In this document: in pieces, positions 27,661 through 53,438 of the stretch
Position numbering within the stretch: the stretch's first letter is position 1
Layout of the letters: every line of letters begins with the position of its first letter
Assembly: GCA_963931185.1 (NCBI GenBank)
Contig: OZ006981.1
Coordinates: forward strand, 929,626 to 993,625
DNA length: 64,000 nucleotides
From: an uncultured Bacilli bacterium
GTDB lineage: Bacteria > Bacillota_I > Bacilli_A > RF39 > UBA660
Direction of reading: 5' to 3'
The notes under the pieces: generated by a model
The model's input: the letters and a program-made list of their open reading frames with translations, nothing else
What the model was told of the DNA's origin: nothing
Databases searched by the model: none
Position numbers and translations under genes: made by a program

Positions 27661-27661
27661 T

Positions 27662-28926: not shown

Positions 28927-29035
28927 TTTAACAGGAAAGAAGCATTCGATATATTTTTTTATAATTTTAAATTACGAAAATATCGTAATTGAAGAGTCTG
29001 GTAAACTTTAATAAGAAAATAGAAGGAGATTGAAA

Positions 29036-29299
29036 TTGAAAAGTAAAACAATAATAAAAGCAGATGAGATGTTAGAAATTCTAAATAAGCAGTGGGCTAC
29101 AATACAAGATATAATGAAAATAGGTGCGTGAGGTAGAAATAAAGCAAGAAACATAAAAAACGAAATAGAAAGAAATATAATAGATCAAGGATTAAAACTT
29201 CCTAATAATTTAGTTCCGATGGAAAAGGTAATTGAATACTTTAAAATTAATCTAGATTTTTTAGTAACAATTAATAAATCAAAAAATGGCGAAATATAA
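29036..29299 (+). pseudogene. Xis/AlpA-like small DNA-binding protein interrupted by in-frame TGA
   Basis: GAAGGAG RBS, TTG 29036. Translation is LKSKTIIKADEMLEILNKQWATIQDIMKIGA-TGA(29129-29131)-GRNKARNIKNEIERNIIDQGLKLPNNLVPMEKVIEYFKI... A Cys or Trp codon is expected at the stop position. Confidence 0.45.
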
Positions 29300-30098: not shown

Positions 30099-30522
30099 AT
30101 TAGATTTTGCAGAAGGAATGAAAATACTTTATTCTTGTTATCATAAAGATTTAAACAATGATGATTTTATTATATGGTATGAAATGTTAAAAGATATCAA
30201 ACCAGATGTATTTAAAAAGACAATGATAGAAATATGTAAAGAAAAATCATTTATGCCTACAGTACACGATATATTAGATAAATCAAAGAATGTTAGTAAT
30301 AGTTATTATTTATCTATAATCGATAAAATGTATGATGATGGTTATTTTAAAAAGGGATATCAGGAATTAACAGATGAACATGCTAATAGAAATTATGATA
30401 AAGCAATAAGATGGATAGAAAAAGGAATAATACCACAATTTTTATTAGATGACATGAATGAATATATAAAATCTAAAACTCAAATTATTAATAAAGAAAC
30501 TTTAAGGATAGATTCATGTTAA
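30091..30522 (+). CDS. Phage helicase-loader-like protein (G39P-type), tentative
   Basis: Position after the replisome organizer. N-terminal pattern FAEGMKILYSCYHKDLNNDDFIIWYEMLKDIKPDVFKKTMIEICKEKSFMPTVHDIL resembles G39P-type loaders (from memory). Confidence 0.45.
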   Translation: MDKLDFAEGMKILYSCYHKDLNNDDFIIWYEMLKDIKPDVFKKTMIEICKEKSFMPTVHDILDKSKNVSNSYYLSIIDKMYDDGYFKKGYQELTDEHANRNYDKAIRWIEKGIIPQFLLDDMNEYIKSKTQIINKETLRIDSC

Positions 30523-36235: not shown

Positions 36236-37839
36236 ATGATTTATGTATTAATTGGAGTTATAGGTATTTTGTTAATTATTATTTATGAAGAAAAACAAAA
36301 TAATAAAGATCTGTTAAAAAAATATGAAGAAAAGTTAAAAGCTTTAGAAAAACAAAACGAAATTTTAAATAACAATAAAATAGAAATTGTTTCTTTGAAA
36401 AACGAGATACAAGCATCTGAAAATAAAATTAAAGAATTAAACGAAGAACTTAGTAATTATACGCAAATAAAAAATGATTCATTAATTTTAAATGTTACAG
36501 ATGAAGATGAAATAGCTAGATATTCTGAAGATAAGGTTACAGCTGAACAAAAAATATCTGAAACTAAATCTTCAGAATTGAATGCTGAAAAACAAGAAAT
36601 ATATGAATTAATTGAAAAAACTAACTCTAATATTTTTATAACAGGTAAGGCTGGAACTGGTAAGAGTTATTTGCTTAAATATTTTAGAAAAAATACAATA
36701 AAAAAGTTTTATATTGTGCTCCAACTGGTATAGCTGCATTAAACATTGATGGTGTAACATTGCATTCTGCTTTTGGATGGAATAATTTGATTGATGAACA
36801 CGAAATAAAACTATCTTCAAATAAACTTTCCTTATTAAGAAGTATAGATACTTTGATTATAGATGAAATATCAATGGTTAGAGTAGATGTATTTAATCAA
36901 ATAGATAAAATATTGAAAAAAGCTAATAATAATTCAAAACCATTTGGTGGAAAACAAGTAATTGTATTTGGTGATTTATTTCAATTGCCTCCGGTTGCAA
37001 CAAGAGAAGAAAATGAGTTCTTTACAGATAAGTATGGAGGAATATTTTTCTTTAATGCCCCTGCATATAAAGATGGTCATTTTGAATTTAGAGAGATAAC
37101 AGAAATATTTAGACAAACGGATAAAGAATTTATTGATATATTAAATGATATTAGAGTTGGGAAAATAAATGAAGAACAAATAAAATCATTGAATCAACAT
37201 TATGTTACAGAAGTTCCGCGAAGAGTTGTGCAAGTTGTTCCTATGAAAAATGAGGCTAATAATATTAATAGTGAAAATTTAAATAAAATTAATGGTCAAG
37301 AATTTGAATATCGAGCTAATGTACTTGTTGGTAAAGATATCATAAAGGAAACTGATTTTCCATGCGATTTTGATTTGAAATTAAAAGTTGGATCTTTGGT
37401 AATGATGATAACTAATGACCAAGAACACAAGAGATGGGTTAATGGAACTTTGGGAATTATATCAGGATTATCTCCGACAATGGTTAAAGTAACAATAAAT
37501 GGTACTGATTTTGAAATATCTCCAACAACATTTAATAAATATAAATGTGAATATGATAGAGAAAACAAAACTCTCAAATATATTGTAGAAGCAAGCGTAA
37601 GTCAGTTTCCGTTGATATTGGCTTATGCAATTACTATTCATAAGTCTCAGGGAATGACATATCAACAAATAGCATGTAATTTAGAAAGCTGCTTTGCACC
37701 TGGGCAAGCATATGTAGCATTGTCTAGATGTGCAAATTATGATAAATTGTATTTAACTCAAAAAATAGATGCTAGTTCAATAATTACAGATAATGTAGTA
37801 GTTAATTTTTATAAGGATATAACTAAGAAAGGAAAATAA
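36236..37839 (+). pseudogene. Membrane-anchored PIF1/RecD-like (AAA_30) helicase, split by a frameshift in an A6 tract
   Basis: TM helix MIYVLIGVIGILLIIIY, coiled coil, Walker A GKAGTGKS (36644-36667). The frame then breaks at A6 (36700-36705). One extra A would read TIKKVLYCAPTGIAALNIDGVTLHSAFGW and join the 36760-37839 ORF (IIDEISMV, GDLFQLPPV, ITIHKSQGMTY, YVALSR). Confidence 0.8.
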
Positions 37840-37840
37840 T

Positions 37841-39679
37841 ATGATAAGAGAAACAAAACAGAAACAAATCTCTGAAGTATTTTCAAATGATAGAGATTTA
37901 ATATATGAAATACCTAAGTATCAAAGAAAATATACTTGGGGTATAAATGAATGGGAATTATTATTTAATGATGTAATTGATAATGATAACGGATATTTTT
38001 TGGGTTCTACAATATGTGTAGCTAAACCAGGTAGTATATATGATGCAATTGTATCTGAAGTAATTGATGGCCAACAAAGAATGACAACTTTATCAATTTT
38101 ATTAACAGTATTGTATGCAAAAATAGCAGAACACAGAAATGAATTAGATGAAGATGAATTTATAAATTTAAATATAATTAAGAAACAATTGGCTTATAAA
38201 AAAGATGGAAAATATTATCCTAAATTAAGATTACAAATTCAAGATAATAATCAAGCTGATTTTAATAGTTTATTATATCGTCATGGCATAATAGACGAGG
38301 GAACTACACCATTAAATGCTGGAAATAGAAGAATATATAAAGCTTATAAGCACTTTGAAAAATTAGTAGATGGTTTTTTATCTTCTGATTATGCTGAAAG
38401 TAATGGCTTAAAATCAGATACAGAAGTAAAAACATTATTTAATTTGGTAAAAAGATTTAATAGTGCAGTATTAGTGGTCATCGAAGTTGATACGCATAAA
38501 GATGCATATATGTTATTTGAATCCTTAAATAATAGAGGAGTTCCTCTTACAGCTATCGATTTAATTAAAAATCTTATTATTTCAGTATCAGAAAAAGATA
38601 ATAAGTCAAATGAATGTTACGAAGTTTGGAGAGAAATCCAGAATAATTTGCAAGAAGAATATGTGGTGCAAGAAAGATTTTTTAGACAATATTATAATGC
38701 TTTTAGAGAAGAATTAAATGAACCTTTTATCTTGCCGGAATCAACCAAAAAATATCCATTAGCGTATTTAGCAACAAAAACTACATTAATGGATATATAT
38801 GAAAAATTAATAAAAAAAGATTATCAAAAATATTTGAACGATATATATTTAGCTTCTAAAAAATATGCAATTATTATAAATAATAGTGAAGAAGAAACAG
38901 CTTATGCTCCAGAATTAAAAGATTTAGAAAGAATTCAAGGAGCTCCGGGATATTTATTATTGTTGTATTTAGAGTTAAATAAAGAACAATTAAATATATC
39001 TGATAGTTTAATGAAAGATATTATAGTATTATTAATTAAATTCTTTGCCAGAAGAAATTTAACAGATATGCCTAATACAAGAGATTTAACCAAAATATTT
39101 ATGGATATAATTTCAGACATAAAATCAAATCGAGAATATATTTATGAAATTATCAAAAACAAATTGATAAGTGTGTCTGCTTTTGATGAACTTTTTGCAA
39201 CAAAACTTAAAGGACCGATTTATGATGATAATGACATGGCAACAAGATTTATTTTATGCTATATGGAATCTAAACATCAAACAAAAGAAATTTATACTGA
39301 TTTATGGTCTAGAGATAAGAGTAATAAATATATTTGGACAATTGAGCATATCTTTCCAGAAGGACAGAATATTCCTCAAGGATGGATTGACATGATTGCT
39401 AATGGTAATAAAGATTTAGCATATGAATATTTGAATAACTATGTTCATACAATTGGAAATTTAACTATTACAGGTTACAATTCAACATTAAGTAATTTAG
39501 ATTTTGATAAAAAGAAAAATAGAAAAAATTCTGAAGGTAAAGATGTTGGCTATAGAAATGGTTTGTATCTTAATGAAGATGTAGTAGCAGCAGAAAAATG
39601 GACAATTGATAGAATTAAGACTAGAACTGAAAAATTAGTTAAAGAAGTTATTGATGAATTAGATATGAATAAAAGATAA
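37841..39679 (+). CDS. GmrSD-family Type IV restriction enzyme-like protein (DUF262 plus DUF1524), copy 1
   Basis: IPKYQRKYTW, DGQQR (38066-38080), C-terminal HNH-like EHIFPE...HTIGNLTITGYNSTLSN. Starts 2 nt after the helicase stop. Confidence 0.85.
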   Translation: MIRETKQKQISEVFSNDRDLIYEIPKYQRKYTWGINEWELLFNDVIDNDNGYFLGSTICVAKPGSIYDAIVSEVIDGQQRMTTLSILLTVLYAKIAEHRNELDEDEFINLNIIKKQLAYKKDGKYYPKLRLQIQDNNQADFNSLLYRHGIIDEGTTPLNAGNRRIYKAYKHFEKLVDGFLSSDYAESNGLKSDTEVKTLFNLVKRFNSAVLVVIEVDTHKDAYMLFESLNNRGVPLTAIDLIKNLIISVSEKDNKSNECYEVWREIQNNLQEEYVVQERFFRQYYNAFREELNEPFILPESTKKYPLAYLATKTTLMDIYEKLIKKDYQKYLNDIYLASKKYAIIINNSEEETAYAPELKDLERIQGAPGYLLLLYLELNKEQLNISDSLMKDIIVLLIKFFARRNLTDMPNTRDLTKIFMDIISDIKSNREYIYEIIKNKLISVSAFDELFATKLKGPIYDDNDMATRFILCYMESKHQTKEIYTDLWSRDKSNKYIWTIEHIFPEGQNIPQGWIDMIANGNKDLAYEYLNNYVHTIGNLTITGYNSTLSNLDFDKKKNRKNSEGKDVGYRNGLYLNEDVVAAEKWTIDRIKTRTEKLVKEVIDELDMNKR

Positions 39680-40455: not shown

Positions 40456-40631
40456 ATCCAAAATTCCTATTATAATTATCTTTGGGAACGAATTGGCGTT
40501 TTGATAAATTCCTCAGGAACAAATTGGGAACACTGGCATAGAACAAGATAGGTAAAATAGGGCGTTTTGCGACAAATTTGGCAAATGACAAAACAATAAT
40601 AATGCAAAATATGCTAGAAAATTAACACACG

Positions 40632-40648
40632 CCAAATCCCCCTGAAGG
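40632..40648 (+). repeat. Copy of CCAAA(T)CCCCCTGAAGG motif, no hairpin or terminator attached
   Basis: CCAAATCCCCCTGAAGG matches 15776-15791 (CCAAACCCCCTGAAGG) except for one inserted T. Confidence 0.6.
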
Positions 40649-40792
40649 ATCCATAATGCTCATTTTTCACATTTATTTTTTTAGACTATTATTAACTGAT
40701 GAATTTCTTTTTTCTAGAAAAAAAGAGTGTATGATATAAAATTTATAAAATGTGATGTATAATATTATAAAAAGATTTGGTGATGTCAATAA

Positions 40793-41443
40793 ATGAAGAA
40801 TATAAAAAGAAATATTGTATATGTTGGTTATGATTCATATTACAAAGATACTCTTAAATTACGTGATACAAAAATAAATAATATTAAACCAAATTTAATT
40901 AATATTGATACATTAGAAGAACTTGATAGAAAACAAGGATTCTTGTTGTTACTTACAATGGATGAATTATATGATTATTTTCCTAATATAGTAGATATAT
41001 TTGAACCAGATGTTTATGAAATTGATAGATATTTGAGAAAAAAGTTTAAAAATTTTGAATATGTAATTGTAATTTCAATTGAAGAGTTTGATTATGGTCA
41101 TATACCTTTTTCTAATATGTATGTAGTATTTGCAAATAACTATTTCAATACAGATGAAGGTATTAATGTCTTAATAGATAAAATATCTAAAGAATTTATA
41201 TTTAAGAAAGAAAGTAAACTATCAAAAATAAAATGTAATAATGTAGAAAAATTAATAACTTTTATTAAAAAGTCTAAGAAAGATTTTTTTTCAACAGAAG
41301 AAATAAAACAAAAATTAAATGTAAATGAAAAATGGATTCAAAGATATATGAAAGAAATGAATAATATTTATAATAATATAGGCTATAATAAAAGAAAAAG
41401 GTTATGGTATGTTGTAAAAAAAACAACACGAAAAAATAAATAA
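40793..41443 (+). CDS. Hypothetical protein with probable C-terminal winged-HTH
   Basis: 216 aa. C-terminal FSTEEIKQKLNVNEKWIQRYMKEMNNIYNNIGYNKRKRLWYV looks HTH-like. Has its own terminator. Confidence 0.55.
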   Translation: MKNIKRNIVYVGYDSYYKDTLKLRDTKINNIKPNLINIDTLEELDRKQGFLLLLTMDELYDYFPNIVDIFEPDVYEIDRYLRKKFKNFEYVIVISIEEFDYGHIPFSNMYVVFANNYFNTDEGINVLIDKISKEFIFKKESKLSKIKCNNVEKLITFIKKSKKDFFSTEEIKQKLNVNEKWIQRYMKEMNNIYNNIGYNKRKRLWYVVKKTTRKNK

Positions 41444-41451
41444 AAGCAATG

Positions 41452-41480
41452 AAAAACGTAGAAATACGTTTTATTTTTTT
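41452..41480 (+). terminator. Rho-independent terminator
   Basis: AACGTA-GAAA-TACGTT followed by TTATTTTTTT. Confidence 0.65.
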
Positions 41481-41556
41481 GTCCATCACAAAACACTAGT
41501 CCAGCAAAAATTTTAATTAAGAGTTATAGTTATATCAAGAAAAGGAGGAATAGCAT

Positions 41557-42261
41557 ATGTTAGAGTTTGTTGAAAACCTATTAAGTTCACAAGATAACAT
41601 TATAGATCAGCTAAAATTATTAAGAGAAAATAAAAATAATAAGGAGGTTAAGAAATATATGCGAGCTCTTGTTAAAGACAATAACTCGCCATATTTCAAA
41701 TATTGTATTGACAAATATTATTTTAATAAAGATGTAAAGGAGGTAAAACCATCAATAAGACCATTAAGACCACTGTATCATTTGAAAGAAACACAAAAAA
41801 TACAGAGTCTTTTAGAATCTAGAAATAATATTATTGATCAACTTAAGTTACTAAAAGAATATAAAAGTACTAAATATGTTGATACTTATATTAAAGAATA
41901 CTTAGAACTTTGGTCAAATGAGTACGAAGCTTACTGCATTCAAAAATATTACTATGATATGGATGTTAAAGAAGTAGAACCTAATGCCAAAAGTCTTAAT
42001 ATTACTTTATATAGAATTTCTTTTAAAGAAACAGAAAGTAAACAAGAAAAAGACAAACAAAATGGTTATGCAAAATCAGTCAAGAAAAACGATAAAATAA
42101 AAATACTAGATGGTCCTTTTAAAAATCAAATCGGAATAGTAAATTCCTTTGATAGAGATAATTCTAAAATATTTGTTACAATTTCTCTTTTTGAAGAAAA
42201 ATTTAATATAGAATATGATGGTAAGTTTGAAAAAATTAAGGAGGCTAAAAGTGAAAAATAG
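41557..42261 (+). CDS. Protein with two tandem ~75-aa repeats and a C-terminal KOW (NusG-CTD-like) domain
   Basis: AAGGAGG RBS. Repeat 1 is SSQDNIIDQLKLLRENKNNKEVKKYMRAL...YCIDKYYFNKDVKEVKP. Repeat 2 is ESRNNIIDQLKLLKEYKSTKYVDTYIKEY...YCIQKYYYDMDVKEVEP. KOW is KIKILDGPFKNQIGIVNSFDRDNSKIFVTISLFEEKFNIEYDGKFEKI. Confidence 0.75.
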   Translation: MLEFVENLLSSQDNIIDQLKLLRENKNNKEVKKYMRALVKDNNSPYFKYCIDKYYFNKDVKEVKPSIRPLRPLYHLKETQKIQSLLESRNNIIDQLKLLKEYKSTKYVDTYIKEYLELWSNEYEAYCIQKYYYDMDVKEVEPNAKSLNITLYRISFKETESKQEKDKQNGYAKSVKKNDKIKILDGPFKNQIGIVNSFDRDNSKIFVTISLFEEKFNIEYDGKFEKIKEAKSEK

Positions 42262-44926
42262 AATAGAGTTACATGCTAAAACAAAATATAGCATAGACCA
42301 TGAAAGTACAATCGATATTAAAGAATTAATATTAAAGTGTGCCAGTAATGGTGAAAAAGGTGTAGCTATTGTTGATAAAGATAGCGTCCTTAGTTTTTTA
42401 AAAGCAGAGAAAATACTAAAAGAATTAAATATAAAAAATTTTAAATTAGTATATGGAATAGAGGTAAATGTTTTTATTGAAAAACTAACTTATAAAGCTG
42501 TAATTCTATTAAAGAAAAGAAATGGACTTTCCACACTATATAGAATGTTATCCCCTTACTTCACTAATAATAAATTACTATTAGAAGATTTAATGCTTAG
42601 TAAAAAGAATTTTATAATTGGTTTAATATATGAACAAGACAATTATAATTCTAATATATTACAATATTTTAATTATGTAGAAGTAGATGATAAAGTATCT
42701 GAAGAAGTAATTGCCAATTTAAAAAGAAAGACTTTAGTAGTTTACTCAAATAGAATTAATGCCTTATCAAAAGATGAAGAATTAAGTAAAAAAGTTCTTT
42801 ATAACAAATTACATATAAAAGAAAAAATTGATACTAGAATCTATAAAAGTACACAAGAAATTTTAAAACAGGTAAAAGATATTGAAATTGTTATTGATAA
42901 CCCTAATAAAATATTTAATATGATAGAGAATTTCAACTTGTTAGAAAATAACATTTATTTACCTGTAGATGATAATTCATATATTGATTTGTTAGTGAAT
43001 ACTAAACTGAATGAAAAATATAATAATGATATTCCGTTGAAAGTAAAAAAACGTATTGAAGAAGAATTGAAACTTATTAAAGAACATAATTATGAAGGAT
43101 TCATTAATTTATATAAAAAAATAATTGATAAGTGCAAAGAAGAACAGGAAGAATATGTTATTTGTGATTACATTAATTATTTATATATTGCTTATTTACT
43201 AGGAATAACACATTTTAATCCAATAAAGCATAATCTAAATTACGAACTTTTTTTTATCAATCATCCCAAAATCACCATTAAAATATCACCAGAATTTGTT
43301 AAAAAATTAAATATTTTTATTAAAGAAGAACTAAATGTTAATATGATTAGATGTAAAGGATTGATGAGATTAAATAGTAGTAATGTTAAAAATATAATTA
43401 GTGATTATAAGAAAAAATATAATATTAAAATCTCTACTTCGGATAAGTTACTTATAAATAAATATTTAATGAATTATCCAATTAATAATTGGGCATTAAC
43501 TCCAAAGAATTTTATATTACCTGCTGGTGTTAATATATTTGACTTATCACCCCGTGAACTTATAAAAGAAGATGATTCATATCATAGAGTTACAAATATA
43601 GATTATAAGGATATTGAAGAAAACTTTATAACATTAGAATTAATAGCAACTGATAAATTAATGCATTTAATGGAATTGAAAGACATTACTAAAGATAAGA
43701 TAATTAATTGTAATTATAAAGATAGTAATATTATAAAAAATGAAGCTTTTCAAGATTATTTAGAAGCTTATCAAAAAGATATATTATTGGATGATTTATA
43801 TGAAGACTGTTTAAATAGTAAAATTGATTTAATTGAAATATTTAATATAATTAATGAAATAAAGCATGAAAAAAATATTTCTAATAAAACTAAGAAAATA
43901 TTGACTAAAAACAATATAGTAATAAACGACAAGAATGCTAATTTTATTTGTAGAGGCATATTAAATGAAAGAACTAGATTAGAATATGAACTATTGTATT
44001 TTAAAAAATATTATCCATTAGAGTACTATTATGTTTTATTAAAAGATTGTCCTTTTAATGATATTATAGACATTATAAAAAATGGTTATGAAGAGGTTAA
44101 AAATAGAATTAAAGATTATTCAAAATATAGATATGAATATAAATATTTAAAGTTAGTAGCAAAGTTATATGAATCAAATATTAATTTTTCTATTGAAGAA
44201 AGAGAAATAGTAGAAGATTATTGTTTTGAATTAGATAAGGAAAATAAAAAAATAATTTTAATAACTAATAAGACAAATAATGAAATTTATAAATATTTAT
44301 CTAATAATTTATCTGTAATAGGAACAAGACCAATAAATGGAAAAATGCCATATATGAGTAAAATAATCGCTAAATTAATAAGAATTAATAAAGATGTAAT
44401 ATTGTTTGGATTAGATGGAAAAACTAATTTTTATTTAGAATATCTATTATCGGAAATAACTAGAATAGATAGAAAAGCAATTAGGCAATATTTAAATCCA
44501 TGCTCTTGCTATAAGGATAGTATTTTAACAATCGATGAAGAACGTTATATTAATGGAATAAGATATTTGTTATATCATAATTTAACAATAAAAGATTACC
44601 ATAATGTTAAAGATATTATTATTGATGATTCTAACATGATGATAGATAAATTAATTTATATGATTGAAGAGAGTGAAAGTAAAGTAATAATCATTGATAG
44701 AGTTGAATCTATAGAAGGTAATATTAGTAATACTTTAGAAAGAATAAAAGAAATTGCTAAATTAAAAAAACTTAATGTCATACTTTTTACAAATCTAAAA
44801 AAAGAATATGAAGAATCTAACAAAAAGGATATATCTTCGTTTGAAAATAATGAATTGTTGGATAAATATGTTGATTATATAAATATTTTAGATGGTAAAG
44901 AGTTATATCATATAAAGGAAAAATAA
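42251..44926 (+). CDS. Pol III alpha (DnaE/PolC)-like protein with substituted catalytic residues, fused to a DnaB-C-terminal-like RecA domain
   Basis: GTG 42251 follows AAGGAGG. PHP-like N-terminus has ELHAKT instead of HxH and IVDK instead of (I/V)TDH. Conserved scaffold motifs are retained (PLKVKKRIEEELKLIKEHNYEGF, LLGITHFNP at 43196-43222, LYFKKYYPLEYY). The palm motif reads HPKITIKI (43262-43285) where the family has PDIDxDF. The C-terminal ~230 aa follow the DnaB RecA-domain pattern (GTRPINGKM 44321-44347, VILFGLDG, VIIIDRVESIEG). Confidence 0.65.
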   Translation: MKNRIELHAKTKYSIDHESTIDIKELILKCASNGEKGVAIVDKDSVLSFLKAEKILKELNIKNFKLVYGIEVNVFIEKLTYKAVILLKKRNGLSTLYRMLSPYFTNNKLLLEDLMLSKKNFIIGLIYEQDNYNSNILQYFNYVEVDDKVSEEVIANLKRKTLVVYSNRINALSKDEELSKKVLYNKLHIKEKIDTRIYKSTQEILKQVKDIEIVIDNPNKIFNMIENFNLLENNIYLPVDDNSYIDLLVNTKLNEKYNNDIPLKVKKRIEEELKLIKEHNYEGFINLYKKIIDKCKEEQEEYVICDYINYLYIAYLLGITHFNPIKHNLNYELFFINHPKITIKISPEFVKKLNIFIKEELNVNMIRCKGLMRLNSSNVKNIISDYKKKYNIKISTSDKLLINKYLMNYPINNWALTPKNFILPAGVNIFDLSPRELIKEDDSYHRVTNIDYKDIEENFITLELIATDKLMHLMELKDITKDKIINCNYKDSNIIKNEAFQDYLEAYQKDILLDDLYEDCLNSKIDLIEIFNIINEIKHEKNISNKTKKILTKNNIVINDKNANFICRGILNERTRLEYELLYFKKYYPLEYYYVLLKDCPFNDIIDIIKNGYEEVKNRIKDYSKYRYEYKYLKLVAKLYESNINFSIEEREIVEDYCFELDKENKKIILITNKTNNEIYKYLSNNLSVIGTRPINGKMPYMSKIIAKLIRINKDVILFGLDGKTNFYLEYLLSEITRIDRKAIRQYLNPCSCYKDSILTIDEERYINGIRYLLYHNLTIKDYHNVKDIIIDDSNMMIDKLIYMIEESESKVIIIDRVESIEGNISNTLERIKEIAKLKKLNVILFTNLKKEYEESNKKDISSFENNELLDKYVDYINILDGKELYHIKEK

Positions 44927-44927
44927 G

Positions 44928-45599
44928 ATGGACAAGGTTAAAGAATATATTTTAAACAATAAGATTACACTTGTTATTACTTCACCAAACTCAAAAATTT
45001 TATCTATTATTAATTTACTAAATGAATTATCAATTAAAGGAAAATATAAGACTGTTTTATTCAGTTTTAACATTAGCTGTAATTATTATTTACAAAAGTT
45101 AATATCATTTCTATCAGGTATTAACAATAGTATAATCACAAAGTATTTTTATCCATATGTAATAAATAGTAAAAAGAATAGAGATAAGATTAATCGTAAT
45201 AAATTTATTGATTCAATAGGAGAAATACAGAGTAGCAATATTTTAATGAATAGTGAAAAATATGCTGTTGATAAAGATTATTTAGATTATATTCTAGATT
45301 ACTCAGAAAGCAATGTGTTAATAATTGATGATTTTTATGCATTACTAGATAAGACAAAGTATAGTCTAGATGAAATACTAATAAAAGTAAAAGAGAAACA
45401 AGATATTCATTTAGTTTTATTTATAAAGACAAAATATAAAGAAAAAGTAGTAAGACAATTTGCCGAAGTAATAAGAAATTATATTTTTATAGATGGATTT
45501 AATTATGAGGAATATAAAGAGATAAATATTAATATTTTAAATAAAACATTCAAATTGCAATTAAATAAAATGAATCAAATAATGAAGACAAACGATTAA
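44928..45599 (+). CDS. DnaB-C-terminal-like (RecA-fold) protein with degenerate Walker A
   Basis: TLVITSPNSKILSIINLLNELSIKGKYKTVLFSFNISCNYYLQKLISFLSGINNSII parallels DnaB ...ARPxMGKT...V..FSLEM...L..R......i. Walker B-like VLIIDDF. Starts 2 nt after the upstream stop. Confidence 0.55.
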   Translation: MDKVKEYILNNKITLVITSPNSKILSIINLLNELSIKGKYKTVLFSFNISCNYYLQKLISFLSGINNSIITKYFYPYVINSKKNRDKINRNKFIDSIGEIQSSNILMNSEKYAVDKDYLDYILDYSESNVLIIDDFYALLDKTKYSLDEILIKVKEKQDIHLVLFIKTKYKEKVVRQFAEVIRNYIFIDGFNYEEYKEININILNKTFKLQLNKMNQIMKTND

Positions 45600-45718
45600 G
45601 AAAATTGATAAATTTGAAAATATATTGTAAGAGTTTATATTATTAAAGAGCATTGGAGTTTTTAAGAAAAGTAAGGGCTGATACGCTATACTAAGATTAG
45701 TAAGTTAGAGGTGAGTAT

Positions 45719-46954
45719 GTGAAATTAAAAATATTAAAAGGTACTAGTGAAATAGGTGGATGCATAACAGAAATAGTAAGTAATAAAGGAACAAGGATTA
45801 TTATTGATCTAGGCGAAGATTTACCAGATGATAATGTATCAAAATGTGAAAATCCAAATATTGATGGCTTAACCATAGGTGATAAAAAGTATGATGCAGT
45901 TTTTATTACACATAGCCATGGTGATCATATTGGTCTAATAAATTATGTGTTAGATGGTATCGATGTTTATGTTGAACCTACTTCCAAAATAATATATAGT
46001 TTATTATCTACTTTTACACATAAGAAAATAAGATTTAAAACTAAAGATATGTTTTTTAAAAAAAAGATAATAATTAATGATGATATAATTGTGACACCAT
46101 ATATAGTTGATCATTCATCATATAATTCATCAATGTTATTAATTGAGGCTGATGGCAAGAAGGTACTGCACACAGGAGATTTCAGAAATCATGGAGTTAA
46201 AGGTAAATTGTTTGTACCAACACTAAAAGAAATTGGAAATGTTGATATAATTGTAACTGAAGGAACTTCTTTAAGTAGAGGTAATGTTAAATATAAAACA
46301 GAGGAAGATATAGTTAAAGAAGCCAAAAGGGTATTTTATAACTATGACCAAGTTTTTATTTTACAATCATCAACAAATATTGATCGTATTAGAGGTTTTT
46401 ATAAAGCAGCAAAAGAAACTGACAAAAATTTTATAGAAGATCTTTTTACTTCAAATATAACAGTTTCTTTAAAAAATGATTCTATTCCTAATCCTAAAAC
46501 ATTTAATGATGTTTATACATGGATACCAAGAAGATATCTAGACAAATCATTTCGGTTTAAGAAAAAGTATTTGTTTCCTTTTTTGAAATATAGTAAGCAA
46601 AAATCTTATGTTAATAATAAATATGCATTAATGGTAAAGACATCGATGATTGAAGACATAAAAAAACTATATAATAAAAATCATATTACTAATGCGTGTT
46701 TAGTATATTCAATGTGGGAAGGATACAAAGAAAAAGTAGAAATGAAAACCTTTTTTGAAGAGGTGAAGAAATATGGAATTTCTGATATAATAGACATACA
46801 TACCTCAGGTCACGCTGATAAAGAAACTCTTGGTTTATTAAGTTTTCTTAAAGCAAAAAAGATAATTCCTATACATACAATCAAAAAAGAGGAATTATCC
46901 AATATTTTAGATAATGTTTATTTATTAGATGATAATGAAATATTAGATGTATAG
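45719..46954 (+). CDS. Metallo-beta-lactamase / beta-CASP-type nuclease (RNase J/CPSF-like fold)
   Basis: GTG start follows AGAGGTGA. HSHGDH (45911-45928), HTGDFRNHG, TEGTSL, and C-terminal HTSGHADKETL...IPIHT (beta-CASP motif C-like). The catalytic set looks intact. Confidence 0.75.
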   Translation: MKLKILKGTSEIGGCITEIVSNKGTRIIIDLGEDLPDDNVSKCENPNIDGLTIGDKKYDAVFITHSHGDHIGLINYVLDGIDVYVEPTSKIIYSLLSTFTHKKIRFKTKDMFFKKKIIINDDIIVTPYIVDHSSYNSSMLLIEADGKKVLHTGDFRNHGVKGKLFVPTLKEIGNVDIIVTEGTSLSRGNVKYKTEEDIVKEAKRVFYNYDQVFILQSSTNIDRIRGFYKAAKETDKNFIEDLFTSNITVSLKNDSIPNPKTFNDVYTWIPRRYLDKSFRFKKKYLFPFLKYSKQKSYVNNKYALMVKTSMIEDIKKLYNKNHITNACLVYSMWEGYKEKVEMKTFFEEVKKYGISDIIDIHTSGHADKETLGLLSFLKAKKIIPIHTIKKEELSNILDNVYLLDDNEILDV

Positions 46955-46966
46955 AAGGAGATATTT

Positions 46967-48406
46967 ATGGATAACATAAGTAATTTAAATATTAGTGATA
47001 TTGCTAAACAAGTTATTAAAAGATATGTTGGTAAAAAAGATTATGTTGTAAGAATTAGAGTAAATAAAAAAAATAAAAAACACAAAGTAGAAATTGTTGT
47101 ATATTATGAAGGAAGAAAATCATTTGAAGTTAAAGACAATAAGTTATTGTTAGATGGAGCTTATTTCTTTACTAAAGGAAATAAAAAAATTACACATTCT
47201 ATGGAGACGGAAATTGCTTGTTTAACTAAATTAGGTTTTTCATTTAAAATTGGTACCAAGATTGATTCTACTAATCAATATTATAAAGATGGATATAGAT
47301 ATCGTATTTTTGTAGAACCTTCTAGTGCTAAAAAAGGATCTAAAGAATGTTATGACAATTATAAAGAAGAAATAAAAGAAAGAATGGAAGTTATTTTAGA
47401 AGCTTTAAAAAGATATGATAATGATTTTATATATCATTATGATAATGAAACAAATATAAATAGTTTTTATACTAAAAAAGTTGATAATACTATTAATTAT
47501 TTTAAATTAAATGAATTATTAAAAATAGGTATAGATAACACTGTTAAACAAAAAGGCATTAAGAAAATCAAATTTAATGAAAAATTGGTTGGTTCCCAAA
47601 CGACCTATACTGAAGAAGAATATAGAATAATAGATTCTATTATGGAAAATAGAATTAAGACATATAATTTTGGAGTTCTTTTAGAAGAAAATAAAGAAGA
47701 ATATATCGATAACAATGAAAAAATATATCAACAATTACTTATGAACAAGATGTTTGATAAAAACGAAAGAGAACAACTTTTCAAAGTGGATAATTGTCCT
47801 TTTAAAGATAGCAATGCATATGAAATGGAATATAACTTATATGCTGCAAATAGAACTAATCGTAAACAGAAAACAAAAAAAGGAAGAGTAGATAATATAT
47901 TTATCAGTGGTAATAAGATTTTATTTACTGAATTAAAATATGACGAAAAAGTTATTGGCGGTACAAATGGAATTCATAAGCATTTAATTGATTTAATTAA
48001 TGGATTTGAAAAAAATGATGAAGCTTTATCTGAAATATATGACTATGTATGTGATTACAATGATGTGTTAACTTACATTAATGATAAAGAAGAATATATT
48101 ATTAAAAATGTGAAGAGATTTAATGACAAAGAAGTAGAAAAAGAATTTATAATTATATGTGGATATTCAAACAGTAAAAGGGATGTTGTTTATAATGAAT
48201 TAGAAAGAGTTTATCCTCTAACAGGAAAAAATGCTGGAGTAGAAAAATCATATGAGATATTTTTAGATAACAAAAAAATTAATTTAGAGGATATGACTAC
48301 TGAATGGTTGATTTCTTTACTTAAAAATAGATATCATTGTGAAACTAAGATTTTCATAGTAGATAACAATTATACTAAATTTGAAATATATCAAAAAAAA
48401 GTATAG
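46967..48406 (+). CDS. Hypothetical 479-aa protein with a putative PD-(D/E)xK nuclease core in the C-terminal half
   Basis: AAGGAG RBS. YEMEYNLY...GRVDNIFISGNKILFTELKYDEK (about 47882-47946) fits E...D...ExK. Nothing else recognised. Confidence 0.5.
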   Translation: MDNISNLNISDIAKQVIKRYVGKKDYVVRIRVNKKNKKHKVEIVVYYEGRKSFEVKDNKLLLDGAYFFTKGNKKITHSMETEIACLTKLGFSFKIGTKIDSTNQYYKDGYRYRIFVEPSSAKKGSKECYDNYKEEIKERMEVILEALKRYDNDFIYHYDNETNINSFYTKKVDNTINYFKLNELLKIGIDNTVKQKGIKKIKFNEKLVGSQTTYTEEEYRIIDSIMENRIKTYNFGVLLEENKEEYIDNNEKIYQQLLMNKMFDKNEREQLFKVDNCPFKDSNAYEMEYNLYAANRTNRKQKTKKGRVDNIFISGNKILFTELKYDEKVIGGTNGIHKHLIDLINGFEKNDEALSEIYDYVCDYNDVLTYINDKEEYIIKNVKRFNDKEVEKEFIIICGYSNSKRDVVYNELERVYPLTGKNAGVEKSYEIFLDNKKINLEDMTTEWLISLLKNRYHCETKIFIVDNNYTKFEIYQKKV

Positions 48407-48494: not shown

Positions 48495-48525
48495 GGTCAA
48501 TGCGTTAAGCATTGGCTATTTTTTT
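48495..48525 (+). terminator. Rho-independent terminator of the 41557-48406 operon
   Basis: GGTCAATGC-GTTAA-GCATTGGC followed by TATTTTTTT. Confidence 0.7.
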
Positions 48526-48946
48526 AATTACTTTAATAAAATATTACTTTTTTCAATAAAGATGTTATGATAATTATTACCAAGAGTATTTTTAATAAAA
48601 GGTAAAAAAATTAGTAATGTTTTAATTTGAAGTTTTCATATAAGAATAAATATTTGATTTATAATTATTCAATTAATTTTTCAGCAAACTATAATTTTTA
48701 TGATTTAAAGTATATAATAAGTCTTGATAAATTATATAAAATTCTTATAATTCATTATCTAAATTAATTGATAAATAAACAATGTTTCTTCCTATAATTA
48801 TCTGTTTTATTTAAATTTCCTATAATGACATTTTCAATAAACGTTTCAAATCAATAGTAATGATGCATTTTAAGTTTAAATTAGAATTTATAATATCTTT
48901 ACTTAATTTAATCATAATGATAAAATTACTATGGTGATGATTAGTT

Positions 48947-49648: not shown

Positions 49649-50539
49649 ATGAAATCATATAAAAAAATATTAATAGCTTTTATTTTAAATATTTCGTTTT
49701 CAATTTTTGAATTTATTGGTGGATTGTTTACAAATAGTATATCAATTATGTCAGATGCAGTACATGATTTTGGCGATGCATTAAGTATTGGCACATCACT
49801 AGTATTAGAAAAGATAAGTAAAAGAAAACCTGATTCATCATATACCTATGGTTATGCAAGATATTCTATACTAGGAGCATTGATTACAACTATCGTTTTA
49901 ACAATTGGTTCAATTTTTGTTATAACAAATGGAATAAGTAGAATATTAAATCCAGAAGTTATAAATTATAATGGAATGATATTGTTTGCTATATTTGGTG
50001 TATTAATTAATTTTACAGCAGCTTACTTTACAAGAGATGGAGAATCAATTAACCAAAAAGCTGTCAATTTACATATGTTAGAAGACGTTTTAGGTTGGGT
50101 AATAGTTTTAATTGGTTCTATATTAATAAAATATACAAACATTTCAATATTAGATTCAATTATGTCTATTTGTATCGCAATATTTATATTAATAAATGCA
50201 TTTAAAAATATGAAAGAAATATTGGATTTGTTTTTAGAAAAAACTCCAAAAAATATATCTATTGAAAAAATTAAGTATCATATAATGAAAATAAAAGGAA
50301 TTGCTGATGTTCATCATATTCATGTCTGGAGTATGGATGGAATAGCTAATTATTCTACTATGCATATAGTTACAAAAGAAAAAAACATTAAAGAAATAAA
50401 AAATAAAGTTAAAGAAGAAATGAAAAAACATAATATTATCCATACAACTATTGAAGTTGAAGAAACCAATGATGACTGTAATGAAAAAGATTGTATTGTA
50501 AAAATAGATAATGAGCATTCGACTCACCATCATCATTAA
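49649..50539 (+). CDS. Cation diffusion facilitator transporter (CzcD/ZitB-like)
   Basis: Six TM helices, SDAVHDFGDALS motif, HMLEDVLGW, C-terminal His-rich tail EHSTHHHH. Confidence 0.85.
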   Translation: MKSYKKILIAFILNISFSIFEFIGGLFTNSISIMSDAVHDFGDALSIGTSLVLEKISKRKPDSSYTYGYARYSILGALITTIVLTIGSIFVITNGISRILNPEVINYNGMILFAIFGVLINFTAAYFTRDGESINQKAVNLHMLEDVLGWVIVLIGSILIKYTNISILDSIMSICIAIFILINAFKNMKEILDLFLEKTPKNISIEKIKYHIMKIKGIADVHHIHVWSMDGIANYSTMHIVTKEKNIKEIKNKVKEEMKKHNIIHTTIEVEETNDDCNEKDCIVKIDNEHSTHHHH

Positions 50540-50741
50540 TAAAAAATATTTAATATCTAAAATAAAAAAGATTAGAAAATTAAAAAAATTATTGTTATAA
50601 TTTTTAGACTATTGACAAATAAATGTTAATTGTTTTTTTATTTATAAATAAAAAATTAAATATAAATAACAATACTATACTATTAAATAATAAAAATAAA
50701 CGATAAAATATGCTATAATTTCATTAAGAGGTGATTAGTTG

Positions 50742-52442
50742 ATGGGGACTATTAGAGAATTTATGGATCAAGCTGAAGGCGGAAAATTAATATTACCATC
50801 TATACAAAGAGAATATGTATGGAACGAAGAACAAATCTGTAGACTATTTGATTCAATAATGAGTGAATATCCAATTGGTCATATGATGTTGTGGAAATTA
50901 GATGGAAGTAAAATAAATGAAAAAGGGATAACATTTTATAAATTATTAAATAATTATAATGAAATGATTCCAGAAAACAATGAGAAACTTGAAAACCCAT
51001 CACCTGATAAAACTTATTTTGCTATATTAGATGGACAACAAAGAACACAATCATTATATATTGGTTTAAAAGGTTATTTAAAATTAAAAATATATAGAGC
51101 ACGAAAAAATAATGTAGAATCCTATAAAAATAAATATTTATATATTAACTTAATAGGAGAAGAAAGTGAACTTGATGAATATAAATATGAATTTAAATTT
51201 TTTGCCGATGAAGAATTAAAAAACAAAGAAAATGAAAATAAATTTTTCTTTAGAGTAGGCAAAATATTGCAATATGATAGATTACCTAATATAAATGATA
51301 TCGAAAATATTAAAAATATACAACTTAATGATGAACAAAAAAGAATAGCTCAAGATATTTTATTTAATTTATATCAAAAAATAAATGTTAATGACAGTAT
51401 ACTTCATTGGGATATTATTTCAAGTGATAAGTCATTGGATAATGTATTAAATATTTTTATAAGAACTAATAGTGGCGGAACTGTATTAAGTAAAACAGAT
51501 TTATTATTTTCTACTGTTGTAGCTAATTGGGAAGATGCAAGAAAAAATATTGAAGAGTTACTTGACAGAATTAATAATAAAGGTGGGCAAGGAGTAAGAT
51601 TTAATTTTACAAAAGATTTTATTATGAGAACTCTTATGTATCTATTGGATGAACCTGTAACATTAAAACTTAATGACATAAAAGATAATATACAAAGCAT
51701 GAGAGAAAACTGGGAATTATTAAGTAGTGCTATTTCAAAAGCTCCATCAGTATTAAAATATGCTGGATATAATGGAGAAAATTTAATTTCATATAATGCA
51801 GTTATGCCTATAATATATTATATATATAAAGGAGGATTTTTAAAGAAAACTGACACAATAGATTATAATCCTATGGAAGAACTAAAAAAATATTTAGTAA
51901 TTGCTCAAATGAAAAAATTATTTGGAGTTGCAAGCAATAATACTTTAACTAATGTTAGAAATGCCCTTATTGACAAAAATAAAAAATTGCGTAATAAATA
52001 TTTTAAACTCAATGATTTAAATAATGTTAATATTGTAGGAAACAGAGATTTCAGTGTAAACGATGAAATAATTGAATCGTGGTTTGAAGAAAATAAAAAT
52101 GACTATACTTTTATGATTTTAACATTGCTATATCCATGTGCTGATATTGAAAAAGTTAAATATCATCAGGATCACATGCATCCGGAGTCTAAATTAAAAA
52201 ACAATCCAAAATTTTACAATCTAAGAAATCGTTTAGCAAATCTTCAATTGCTTCCCGGAGATGAAAATGAAAGTAAAAACGACACAGACTTGGAAGAATG
52301 GTTAAACTTAGATAATGATAGATTAAAAAATACAAGGTATCTACCAGAGTGTTCTAAAAAAATTGAAGATTATGAAATTTTTTTGGAAGAACGAAAAAAG
52401 TTAATGAAAGAAGAATTATTAAAAATTTTAAAAATTAATTAA
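50742..52442 (+). CDS. GmrSD-family protein (DUF262 plus DUF1524), copy 2
   Basis: LPSIQREYVW, DGQQR (51030-51044), C-terminal HQDHMHPES...LANLQLLPGDENESKND. Confidence 0.8.
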   Translation: MGTIREFMDQAEGGKLILPSIQREYVWNEEQICRLFDSIMSEYPIGHMMLWKLDGSKINEKGITFYKLLNNYNEMIPENNEKLENPSPDKTYFAILDGQQRTQSLYIGLKGYLKLKIYRARKNNVESYKNKYLYINLIGEESELDEYKYEFKFFADEELKNKENENKFFFRVGKILQYDRLPNINDIENIKNIQLNDEQKRIAQDILFNLYQKINVNDSILHWDIISSDKSLDNVLNIFIRTNSGGTVLSKTDLLFSTVVANWEDARKNIEELLDRINNKGGQGVRFNFTKDFIMRTLMYLLDEPVTLKLNDIKDNIQSMRENWELLSSAISKAPSVLKYAGYNGENLISYNAVMPIIYYIYKGGFLKKTDTIDYNPMEELKKYLVIAQMKKLFGVASNNTLTNVRNALIDKNKKLRNKYFKLNDLNNVNIVGNRDFSVNDEIIESWFEENKNDYTFMILTLLYPCADIEKVKYHQDHMHPESKLKNNPKFYNLRNRLANLQLLPGDENESKNDTDLEEWLNLDNDRLKNTRYLPECSKKIEDYEIFLEERKKLMKEELLKILKIN

Positions 52443-52541: not shown

Positions 52542-53438
52542 ATGAATCGCTTTAGAGAAGTAAAAATAGCAAGTATTGTTGGAATTTTAGGAAATTTATT
52601 TTTGCTTATCATTAAATCAATTATTGGAATTATATCAAATAGTCAAGCAATGATAGCTGATGCTTTTAATAGTGCAGGAGATATATTTTCTTCGTTTATG
52701 ACTTTTATTGGAAATAAAATAGCTAGTACACCATCTGATGATGACCATAATTTAGGTCATGGAAAGGCAGAATATATATATTCATTATTAATTAGTATTG
52801 TAATGATTTTAATGACATTTACAATTTTTAAAAATTCTTTTTCTTCAATTTTAAATGGAGGAAAATATACATTTTCAATTTGGTTAATTATTGTTTGCCT
52901 AATTACAATGATAATTAAAGCATCACTTTACATATACACTAACTCAATATCTAAAAAGTATAATAATTTATTAATAAAAGCTAACTCAAAAGATCATCGA
53001 AATGACTTCTTTATTACTACTTTAAATTTAATTTCAGTTATTTTTGCTGAAAATAACTTTTATTTGCTGGATGGAATAGTAGGAATTGGTATAGCCATTT
53101 GGATATTTATAACAGCTGTTAATATCTTTAAAGAAAGTTACGATGTATTGATGGACAAATCAATTGATAGTGTTACAAAACAAAAAGTATTTGAAATAAT
53201 AAAAAGACATAAAGAAGTGAAGAAAATTATTCATTTTAATTCCACACCAGTTGGGTATCGCTATCAAATATCTTTTACTATTTATGTTAACGGTAATCTA
53301 TCAACTTTCAAAAGTCATGATATTGCTAATAAATTGGAAAAAGAAATAATAAGAGAACTGGACGAAATATATTTAGCAGTAATTCATGTAAATCCAATGA
53401 AGATAACTGTAAAAAAATGTAATAATAAAAAAAAATAA
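52542..53438 (+). CDS. Cation diffusion facilitator transporter (FieF-like)
   Basis: ADAFNSAGDIFSS, about 6 TM helices, C-terminal cytoplasmic domain. Confidence 0.8.
   Translation: MNRFREVKIASIVGILGNLFLLIIKSIIGIISNSQAMIADAFNSAGDIFSSFMTFIGNKIASTPSDDDHNLGHGKAEYIYSLLISIVMILMTFTIFKNSFSSILNGGKYTFSIWLIIVCLITMIIKASLYIYTNSISKKYNNLLIKANSKDHRNDFFITTLNLISVIFAENNFYLLDGIVGIGIAIWIFITAVNIFKESYDVLMDKSIDSVTKQKVFEIIKRHKEVKKIIHFNSTPVGYRYQISFTIYVNGNLSTFKSHDIANKLEKEIIRELDEIYLAVIHVNPMKITVKKCNNKKK

Follow-up and report, generated by a model that had tools for sequence, protein, structure and literature searches.

A replisome-like operon with degenerate active sites and candidate nucleases in an uncultured Bacilli bacterium: a possible accessory defence system

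An uncultured Bacilli bacterium (GTDB lineage Bacteria; Bacillota_I; Bacilli_A; RF39; UBA660) carries an operon in which proteins with the folds of the replication machinery have lost their catalytic residues and are encoded together with two candidate nucleases. The operon lies within a 64,000-nucleotide stretch of contig OZ006981.1 (assembly GCA_963931185.1, positions 929,626 to 993,625), hereafter the window. Its six co-oriented plus-strand genes, g1 to g6 (40793-48406), encode a winged helix-turn-helix (wHTH) protein, a KOW-domain protein, a fusion of a PolC-type polymerase to a DnaB-type RecA domain, a second DnaB-like protein, a metallo-β-lactamase (MBL)/β-CASP nuclease, and a probable PD-(D/E)xK nuclease. 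The chances appear about even that this is an accessory operon of the defence type, horizontally mobile and kept by selection, in which the pseudo-replisome would serve as a non-catalytic sensor or scaffold for the nucleases. Such a defence would most likely be directed against phages or plasmids and be of a kind not yet described, the claim of novelty being provisional. In what follows, L-numbers denote loci of relatives, P-numbers denote relative proteins, and gX is a gene of the relatives.

The original prediction, made from the letters of the window, had proposed five open reading frames (ORFs) in tight linkage with a single longer gap, preceded by a separately terminated one, and all six were found on the plus strand where it had placed them (Table 1). 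Genes g2 and g3 overlap by 11 nt, g3 and g4 are 1 nt apart, g4 and g5 are separated by 119 nt, and g5 and g6 by 12 nt. A strong terminator that had been proposed to end the operon is present as a hairpin with a T-run behind g6. A separate terminator postulated for g1 held up in part: folding yields a hairpin with a T-run, but it is weak and absent from the output of the terminator scan, which requires three G-C pairs. The start codon of g3 is most likely GTG at 42251 rather than ATG at 42215, because GGAGG lies 6 nt upstream of it and the homologues, 886-900 aa long, all begin with MKxRIELHAK. Upstream of g1, a putative promoter is suggested by its match to the consensus; GATGTATAAT is kept in the window, L017 and L002, and L019 has AGTGTATAAT with the TG-TATAAT core retained.

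Table 1. Operon genes and associated features, with positions in the window
Feature	Position	Strand	Description and evidence
g1	40793-41443	+	216 aa; unassigned N-terminal domain and C-terminal (w)HTH (HTH_11)
g2	41557-42261	+	234 aa; two ~75-aa helical repeats and NusG-CTD-type KOW domain (Pfam, repeats)
g3	42251-44926	+	891 aa; fusion of PolC-type protein and DnaB-type RecA domain (Pfam, PDB sequence match, model)
g4	44928-45599	+	223 aa; paralogue of the g3 DnaB-like domain (blastp, alignment, profile)
gX deletion scar	45600-45718	+	Alignment to L002
g5	45719-46954	+	411 aa; MBL/β-CASP nuclease, RNase J/CPSF type (Pfam, NCBIfam, PDB, motifs)
g6	46967-48406	+	479 aa; N-terminal α/β domains and probable C-terminal PD-(D/E)xK-type core (motifs, model)
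Terminator after g6	48495-48527	+	9-bp stem, 4 G-C pairs, T-run; -12.7 kcal/mol, z = -4.4
Weak terminator-like hairpin and T-run after g1	41455-41480 (approx.)	+	-7.9 kcal/mol, z = -2.6
Left cassette boundary ('junction motif')	40636-40652	+	ATCCCCCTGAAGGATCC; 23-mer unique in the window
Putative g1 promoter	40756-40763	+	TG + TATAAT (-10); GATGTATAAT, 30 nt before ATG
Island start	24730-30522		Fic, Ser/Thr kinase and 412-aa partner, integrase fragment, replisome-organiser gene
Tyrosine-integrase fragment	within 24730-30522	-	267 aa; with phage replisome-organiser gene

The largest protein of the operon, g3, has a PHP-palm-thumb-fingers region (residues 1 to ~650) followed by a DnaB-type RecA domain (residues ~680-891). 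Both the PHP (E 1.1e-8) and the DNA_pol3_alpha (E 1.1e-10) models of Pfam match it, and a sequence comparison with the PDB retrieves PolC (E 3.8e-10). Its AlphaFold model (pLDDT 87.7) gives PolC 3f2c as a Foldseek match (E 3e-35, TMq 0.65), with DnaE at E 1e-25, and the C-terminal ~210 residues match DnaB-family helicases (E 3e-9 to 1e-6); the folds that had been proposed for g3 are thereby confirmed, and Pfam and Foldseek agree on the C-family palm-thumb-fingers and PHP architecture. PolC (PDB 3f2b/3f2c, 9qpc) thus shares with g3 both this fold and detectable sequence similarity, with an identity of 13-16% in structural alignments and ~20% in the sequence alignment. Two subfamilies of relatives were recognized, an 891-aa fusion type, to which the window belongs, and a 683-aa type that does not possess the fused DnaB-like domain.

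The catalytic palm carboxylates of C-family polymerases are D401, D403 and D555 in E. coli and lie in the PDxD...LD motifs of PolC. All three are replaced in g3 (by K, T and E): PolC PDIDLNFS corresponds to PKITIKIS, and PolC KLDILGHDD to TLELIATD. In alignment with PolC, the 683-aa type has lost the acidic residue of the KLDILG motif altogether. The PHP domain of g3 has likewise lost at least two metal ligands, with HxH changed to HAK and TDH to VDK; all members of the family have H-A-K and (V)D-K/T/N, with the Glu of YGxE retained. Both the palm and the PHP losses are shared by every relative aligned, which bears out the earlier suggestion of a catalytically dead Pol III alpha-like protein. 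The alignment of g3 with PolC stops after the fingers helix (YPxEYY), and the C-terminal QLxLF region has no counterpart. Unlike PolC, g3 has no N-terminal, OB, inserted Exo, or C-terminal clamp- and τ-binding regions, the DnaB-like domain standing in place of the last.

An exhaustive HMMER search also revealed a large population of PolC-like proteins of 650-830 aa (P0069-P0205) that have neither the Exo insertion nor the C-terminal domains and are apparently undescribed so far. Some of these keep the catalytic Asp residues (P0070, P0073, P0078, P0120, P0149), and others have lost one or all of them (P0069, P0071, P0075, P0086, P0088, P0097). A different cluster, at 173-9986 of L015, encodes a PolC-like protein of 731 aa that has no Exo and in which the catalytic motifs PDFD and LD are retained, together with a DUF2779 protein (PD-(D/E)xK), a WYL regulator, an FtsZ/tubulin-like protein, a split DnaB (an N-domain ORF and a DnaB_C ORF), an AAA+ ATPase, and a 328-aa ORF. 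This cluster could be a related system in which the polymerase is active.

The DnaB-like domain of g3 shares with the DnaB family (SPP1 G40P 3bh0, H. pylori DnaB 4a1f/4zc0) the RecA-type fold, the GxRPxxGK spacing and the IIID motif, and superimposes on the G40P ATPase domain with a root-mean-square deviation of 4.7 over 218 columns. Weak precomputed Pfam DnaB_C matches occur in g3 homologues. Its Walker A-like GTRPxNGK and Walker B-like IIID are both conserved, but Met follows the lysine where Walker A (GK[TS]) has Thr or Ser. A second DnaB-like protein had been predicted, and g4 is indeed a paralogue of this domain, with 24% identity to g3 residues 683-855 (blastp); a joint profile of g4 and the g3 C-terminal domain retrieves DnaB helicases from the PDB (E 0.0067-0.25). 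In g4, IIDD is kept, and ITSPNSK stands opposite GTRPxNGK, with TSPNSK/R out of register, leaving no Walker A lysine in register. In contrast to DnaB itself, neither g3 nor g4 has a counterpart of the N-terminal helical domain or the linker. A helicase function of these domains is therefore doubtful on their sequences, given this absence, the Met in the Walker A of g3, and the out-of-register lysine of g4. g4 is absent from L007, L019 and the 683-aa cassettes. In L011, a 173-aa ORF after the MBL gene (16185-16706) resembles, as judged by eye, the C-terminal half of the DnaB domain without Walker A (motifs IIIIDSLQLL and LKNRYG), which implies that a helicase-like pseudo-ATPase also occurs as a separate small protein in the 683-aa subfamily.

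The 119-nt gap between g4 and g5 is of the predicted length; it is not plain spacing, however, but the scar of a seventh gene. In relatives a gene of 332-346 aa, gX, precedes the MBL gene, lying in the interval between g4 and the MBL gene in L002-L010 and directly after the dead polymerase gene in L007 and in the 683-aa cassettes (gX was found in L002-L010, L007, L011-13 and L020). Window positions 45400-45606 align to the end of g4 and the start of gX in L002, and the alignment resumes at 45615 with the final ~90 nt of gX, ~940 bp being missing. The last gX residues are still encoded, the remnant ..IIKEHWSF* corresponding to ..IVKEPWSFW of gX. Since the gap matches both ends of gX, the gene was lost through a clean deletion, and the same deletion is found in L001/L016, L017 and L019.

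By sequence, the N-terminal half of gX is nearest to the exonuclease domain of PolC (2p1j, E 6e-10) and to DnaQ, so that g3 and gX together look like a split PolC. The DEDDh motifs of DnaQ-like exonucleases (DxE, D, Hx4D) are not preserved: the Asp of motif I is Asn (NIE/NIK) in 4/5 copies, L012 keeping D-I-E; the Asp of motif II is E, T or N in 4/5 copies, L020 keeping it; and the region of motif III is deleted in 5/5. With gX also without its DEDDh residues, all replisome-derived parts, namely the palm, PHP, proofreader and helicase-like ATPase, are degenerate.

The motifs of g5 tell a different story from those of the replisome-derived parts. The protein matches Lactamase_B (E 6.8e-9), Lactamase_B_2 and, weakly, RMMBL in Pfam, the RNase J family in NCBIfam (E 4e-17), and EF2904 (E 3.7e-14) and RNase J1 (E 3e-11) in the PDB, with aCPSF1 also among the nearest. 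The HSHGDH site that had been noted as intact is kept, as are all other MBL and β-CASP motifs: MBL motifs 1-4 (D, HxHxDH, H, D) and β-CASP motifs A (E), B (H) and C (H) are invariant in eight cassettes (IDxG, THSHxDH, DHSxYNS, HTGDFR, TEGT, HTSGHxD, HT), placing g5 among the β-CASP nucleases. Callebaut et al. are said to have found in 2002 that the branch acting on RNA is distinguished by a His at β-CASP motif C. Because of this His and the RNase J/CPSF type of g5, RNA is at least as likely as DNA to be its substrate. The precedent of Spt5-FttA for a KOW/β-CASP pair and the likeness to the RNase J 'torpedo' also make RNA a possible substrate.

For g6 the PD-(D/E)xK-like core that had been proposed is supported by residues invariant in 22 homologues: E288, G306-R-x-D309-N, E322-x-K324, GIHxHLxD and IxCGY. 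Its model is of high quality (pLDDT 89.9), and its weak Foldseek matches, extending to E 0.13, include Can2 (E 7e-3), McrC (E 0.03-0.06) and the hantavirus L endonuclease; no match at E<=0.001 was found with Foldseek in the PDB and BFVD, and nothing was found by sequence in the PDB. g6 is thus a probable PD-(D/E)xK nuclease. Modules of related genes also occur elsewhere, comprising a 357-aa protein, an MBL protein 47% identical to g5 and a g6-like protein at L031 7661-11197, and a 246-aa protein with a g6-like protein at L028 4265-6426. The family of 246-, 308- and 357-aa partners of these modules has no Pfam or NCBIfam match. At L039 8254-11706 a recurring 115-aa ORF lies downstream of the g6-like gene.

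Two proteins that the original prediction had treated as peripheral turned out to belong to the core of the system. The KOW protein g2, described there as a mere leader of the operon, has as its homologue in the minimal cassette L041 a 149-aa single-repeat protein encoded right after the MBL gene (36% identity, E 5e-17), and some g6 homologues carry an N-terminal KOW domain. Its KOW domain scores 24.4 bits in Pfam (cut-off 22.3), and it matches a PHROG antiterminator family with E 4.7e-5. Its N-terminus is a duplicated helical repeat (internal repeat of 231-nt spacing) rather than the NGN domain that accompanies KOW in the NusG/Spt5 family. The NusG and LoaP models reach 24-29 bits on g2, against cut-offs of 125-136; the NusG match is limited to the KOW part, and the LoaP alignment (residues 26-219) is equally weak. 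A true NusG paralogue was accordingly rejected for want of NGN, and for the same reason g2 has no evident link to RNA polymerase. The wHTH gene g1, taken earlier for a mere neighbour, is conserved together with the dead polymerase more consistently than any other partner and lies directly upstream of the polymerase gene in both subfamilies. Its HTH_11 match (E 4.4e-5, 23.7 bits) is slightly under the cut-off, a profile search with g1 yields 197 clusters, all of 187-261 aa, and in the PDB the g1 profile finds only an insignificant HTH match to RacA.

The conserved gene set that had been anticipated recurs in at least 12 different and unrelated flanking contexts. Common to both subfamilies are g1, the dead polymerase, the MBL nuclease and the KOW protein, and L041-L044 consist of exactly these four genes (wHTH, dead Pol, MBL, KOW). 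gX, the DnaB-like proteins, g6 and the 246-357-aa family are accessory and shuffled; fusions join KOW to the g6 family in some relatives and the dead polymerase to a g4-type domain in P0107 and P0193, and pairs of MBL and g6-like genes are also found alone. The ratio of nonsynonymous to synonymous substitution rates (dN/dS) is 0.13-0.33 across all genes, pseudoenzymes included (0.22-0.33 for g1, 0.24-0.27 for g3, 0.13-0.21 for g5), and purifying selection holds for the window compared with L019, both of which are without gX. One locus, L018 (3713-11476; the same as L022), holds two cassettes in a tandem or hybrid arrangement, a 683-type set (g6-like, g1, dead Pol, MBL) being followed by g2 and an 891-type g3 that ends at residue ~486.

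These data bear on two readings in which the operon would be a replication module, functional or decayed. Catalytic residues are lost throughout, gX is deleted in the window, and g3 is truncated in L018/L022, all of which would fit functionless remnants of a decaying prophage or plasmid replication module. The long ORFs are nevertheless intact at 50-99% identity across many lineages, every gene has dN/dS in the range given above, conservation extends to the substituted positions (PKITIKIS-type motifs, HAK), and the nuclease motifs are invariant. The selection analysis effectively refutes pseudogene decay, and we regard it as very improbable. A working phage or plasmid replication module was rejected as well. 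The proteins would support neither polymerization nor proofreading and probably no ATP hydrolysis, no iteron-like array was found beside the cassette, and the family avoids phages and plasmids. A tblastn search of 50,697 phage and 72,556 plasmid records with g3 returned only true PolC or a 23%-identity fragment, a scan of IMG/VR (2.9 M contigs) with the family alignment gave no relatives beyond true PolC, and when truncated PolC-like relatives were used for a scan, the matches were confined to PolC-like genes of full length. The original prediction had named a home on plasmids or phages as what would overturn it; its view that this is not an ordinary replication module therefore stands, and a role in the replication of a mobile element is unlikely.

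The 891-aa type is rare, with 25 clusters in 5.8 billion proteins and 6 loci in 185,579 species representatives, all of them in gut-type metagenome-assembled genomes labelled Bacilli, Clostridium, Clostridia or Muribaculaceae. A metagenome scan added one informative locus (L022), the remaining matches being real PolC or DnaE genes. In 5/8 distinct contexts of this type, counted by eye, known defence genes lie less than 10 kb from the cassette, as the proposed defence-island setting would have it. The neighbours are Type ISP, split Pif1 and GmrSD genes in the window; AlwI restriction-modification (R-M) and GmrSD genes in L001; HsdR and YgjP in L017; PemK, NERD and MamI R-M in L007; and HsdR, AAA_21/OLD-TOPRIM and MamI R-M in L008. 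The GmrSD gene that had been placed upstream is found on the left, and the further genes expected downstream include one with GmrSD_N on the right. The junction motif that had been noted near 40638 is real and forms the left edge of the homology between strains: the upstream regions of the window, L017 and L019 become homologous exactly at this motif, and the DNA further left differs. In three strains that are nearly identical, different restriction systems have taken the place of the DNA on the left side of the motif, and the right flank is unchanged.

Another possibility is that the cassette is a small integrative mobile element or a phage-satellite module, its wHTH protein being a regulator or initiator, its pseudo-replisome recruiting host replication proteins or interfering with a helper phage, and its nucleases taking part in excision, in processing or in interference with the helper. 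A tyrosine integrase is found ~670 nt upstream in L002-L006, where an island of integrase, cassette and insertion sequence is inserted after secA; a large serine recombinase adjoins the g6-like gene in L039; and in the window an integrase fragment and a phage replisome-organiser gene sit 12 kb upstream of the cassette. The layout of integrase, HTH and 'replication-like' genes also recalls satellites of the phage-inducible chromosomal island (PICI) type. Against this, an integrase is adjacent in only that one of the at least 12 contexts, capsid, relaxase and partition genes are missing, packaging genes were found in none of the loci, and a search around the L002 island gave no convincing att repeats. 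The phage, plasmid and IMG/VR collections yielded no relatives, and a polymerase and a helicase without catalytic residues could not replicate DNA themselves. We therefore hold a satellite to be unlikely. In the intergenic region between integrase and g1 of L002, two 23-nt direct repeats lie 37 nt apart (8060-8119) and may be an operator or a recombinase-binding site.

Housekeeping is a further alternative. In such an accessory to RNA or DNA metabolism, outside any conflict, a KOW/β-CASP 'torpedo' might clear stalled transcription or replication-transcription collisions, with the dead polymerase recognizing 3' ends at R-loops or primers. The nearest relatives of g5, RNase J and aCPSF1, agree with this, as does the fact that KOW/β-CASP partnerships operate at transcription complexes (PMC11616081) and that RNase J1 acts as a 'torpedo' that removes stalled RNA polymerase (PMC8501993), and no defensive character is obvious in the surroundings of the 683-aa subfamily. 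The very patchy spread of the 891-aa type is hard to reconcile with housekeeping, as are the position of the cassette in swapped variable regions beside R-M and GmrSD genes, its modular and quickly reshuffled composition, and a g2 without a recognizable NGN domain for RNA polymerase binding. We think such a role less probable than a satellite.

We infer instead, as the most economical reading, a conflict system in which the pseudo-replisome proteins bind something and the nucleases execute the response. As a non-catalytic sensor or scaffold, the former would bind a replication intermediate of an invader, such as a primed template or a fork, or a replication protein. Binding within a presumed complex would position or license the β-CASP nuclease, with the KOW domain as a possible adaptor, and would also license the PD-(D/E)xK nuclease where one is present; the nucleases would then cut RNA or DNA of the invader or of the cell. 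The wHTH protein might be the regulator of the operon or a subunit that confers DNA-binding specificity.

A decoy or guard, the form put forward in the original prediction, is the special case of this defence reading in which the trigger is a protein rather than a nucleic acid. The dead PolC, exonuclease and DnaB-like proteins would mimic the host replisome, and the nucleases would be released once these mimics are bound by phage proteins whose usual targets for hijacking or inhibition are PolC, the DnaB-family helicase or the clamp loader. The replisome-derived parts are all non-catalytic yet under purifying selection, as expected of proteins that only bind, mimics of polymerase, proofreader and helicase are conserved jointly as one set, and the defence-island setting is in keeping with a guard. 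The low identity of g3 to PolC is, however, a poor fit with a faithful mimic, and many host surfaces are not reproduced, since the N-terminal, OB, Exo and C-terminal β/τ-binding regions are missing. The DnaB-like domains likewise have no N-terminal domain, the minimal cassette contains neither a helicase nor an exonuclease mimic, and we know of no candidate phage trigger. A decoy is thus improbable to about the same degree as a satellite. The same low probability attaches to its fullest form, in which the complete set of replisome pseudoenzymes (PolC, proofreader and DnaB-like) would be an integrated decoy licensing KOW-tethered β-CASP and PD-(D/E)xK nucleases. Because g3 is far from PolC and without its partner-binding regions, and because the minimal cassette manages without helicase or exonuclease mimics, a nucleic-acid trigger or a scaffold would be preferred to faithful protein mimicry.

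Several points weigh against a defence-type accessory operon. The defence phenotype is read from sequence and context, and the identification of g6 draws on motifs and weak Foldseek matches. Every member of the family comes from metagenome assemblies. The association with defence genes was counted by eye over ~12 contexts and without a background expectation, and the integrase beside the cassette in one of these also fits a small mobile element. Apart from a Lar-like ORF and a weak restriction-enzyme-like match, the 683-aa contexts hold no recognizable defence genes; sigma factor, ABC transporter, heavy-metal ATPase, DMP19 and AAA_28 genes are found there. The absence of a named system is bounded by a PADLOC-DB of 2023. 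Finally, the window copy, being without gX, could be a weakened variant.

The window as a whole is chromosomal and very AT-rich (G+C ~24%). Its first 20 kb encode PFOR, RecG, glycosyltransferases and a sensor kinase, and a mosaic island begins ~24 kb into it and runs onward. Within the island a Type ISP restriction enzyme, a split Pif1-like helicase and GmrSD lie to the left of the operon; to its right are PepSY, two cation-efflux genes, a GmrSD_N protein and an SDR, and farther right an ABC transporter, another GmrSD and two DNA methyltransferases. The Pif1-like helicase, between the Type ISP enzyme and GmrSD, occupies two ORFs, 36236-36733 (165 aa, with the P-loop start) and 36760-37839 (359 aa, the remainder), and is either a frameshifted pseudogene or a two-part gene. 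Three GmrSD-type genes are present (37841-39679, 50739-52442 and 59319-61040; one has the N-terminal domain only), and two paralogous cation-efflux genes (49649-50539 and 52542-53438) alternate with them. Cation or heavy-metal transporters also adjoin the cassette or g6-like genes in L001, L014, L017, L021 and L028, and a Fic gene lies downstream of the cassette in L019, as one does at the start of the window's island.

A C-rich motif at the junction, CCCCCTGAAGG, occurs three times in the window (13442-13455, 15779-15792 and 40636-40649) against an expectation of 0.05, and is unusual for a genome of 24% G+C. The copies at 13442 and 15779 flank recG and have two mismatches relative to that at 40636; similarity among the copies ends within ~17 nt. 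Left of the junction, the non-coding stretch 40460-40630 is richer in G+C and contains the repeated words GGGAAC, TTGGC and GCGTTTTG. No Rfam family reached its gathering score in this stretch or anywhere in 24-64 kb, and no tRNAs were found in the window.

If the sensor reading is correct, the operon would represent a new sensing principle, in which replication pseudoenzymes are reused as a detector or scaffold for nucleases, and would provide the first biological role for a catalytically inactive C-family polymerase. It would imply that immune sensors can arise by the 'fossilisation' of entire enzyme assemblies as well as of single domains, in parallel to the integrated decoys of plant nucleotide-binding leucine-rich repeat receptors (NLRs); were the integrated-decoy form to hold, this would be the first bacterial defence by replisome mimicry. 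The family also serves as a marker of variable hot spots of defence in low-GC gut Firmicutes, a poorly studied group, and a compact four-gene version exists for experiments.

To our knowledge, no known defence system contains a polymerase III α, DnaQ or DnaB pseudoenzyme, and in the literature no defence system was found that combines Pol III α, PHP, DnaB, KOW or MBL. PADLOC-DB 2.0 (2023) gave no hit at E<=1 for 5/6 proteins and a 13.8-bit match of g1 to the tail of IetA, in accord with the earlier expectation of no named system. Hachiman/HamMAB, AVAST, Gabija and Lamassu are also multi-gene operons of defence islands in which a sensor of nucleic acid or protein is coupled to nuclease effectors, and MBL-like accessory proteins occur in HamMAB and AVAST (PMC13069673), but no protein of the cassette matches any PADLOC model at a meaningful E. 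A 2026 survey of bacterial polymerases lists inactive members of the Y, X and B families and no inactive C-family polymerase (PMC12926913). The ImuA-ImuB-DnaE2 operon combines, like the cassette, a C-family polymerase with pseudoenzymes, namely the inactive Y-family ImuB and the RecA-like ImuA (PMC12926913), and illustrates that a dead polymerase fold can be a scaffold. There, the C-family enzyme is active, the function is SOS mutagenesis and no nucleases take part, whereas in the cassette the C-family protein is dead and accompanied by nucleases; no sequence relationship between the two was found beyond the C-family fold.

The closest analogy for the nuclease side of the operon lies in FttA/aCPSF1-Spt5, INTS11-Spt5 and RNase J, with which g5 shares the full set of MBL and β-CASP motifs. 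At 411 aa, g5 is shorter, with neither KH nor C-terminal dimerisation domains, and g2, unlike Spt5, has no NGN domain. In the FttA complex the KOW domain of Spt5 contacts both FttA protomers, which together with INTS11/KOW4 provides a precedent for the docking of KOW on a β-CASP nuclease (PMC11616081). A NusG/Spt5-type KOW domain is co-conserved with g5, and in the minimal cassette it is encoded directly after the nuclease. By this analogy, the bacterial KOW/β-CASP pairing echoes Spt5-FttA and INTS11, and it could show how such nucleases are targeted.

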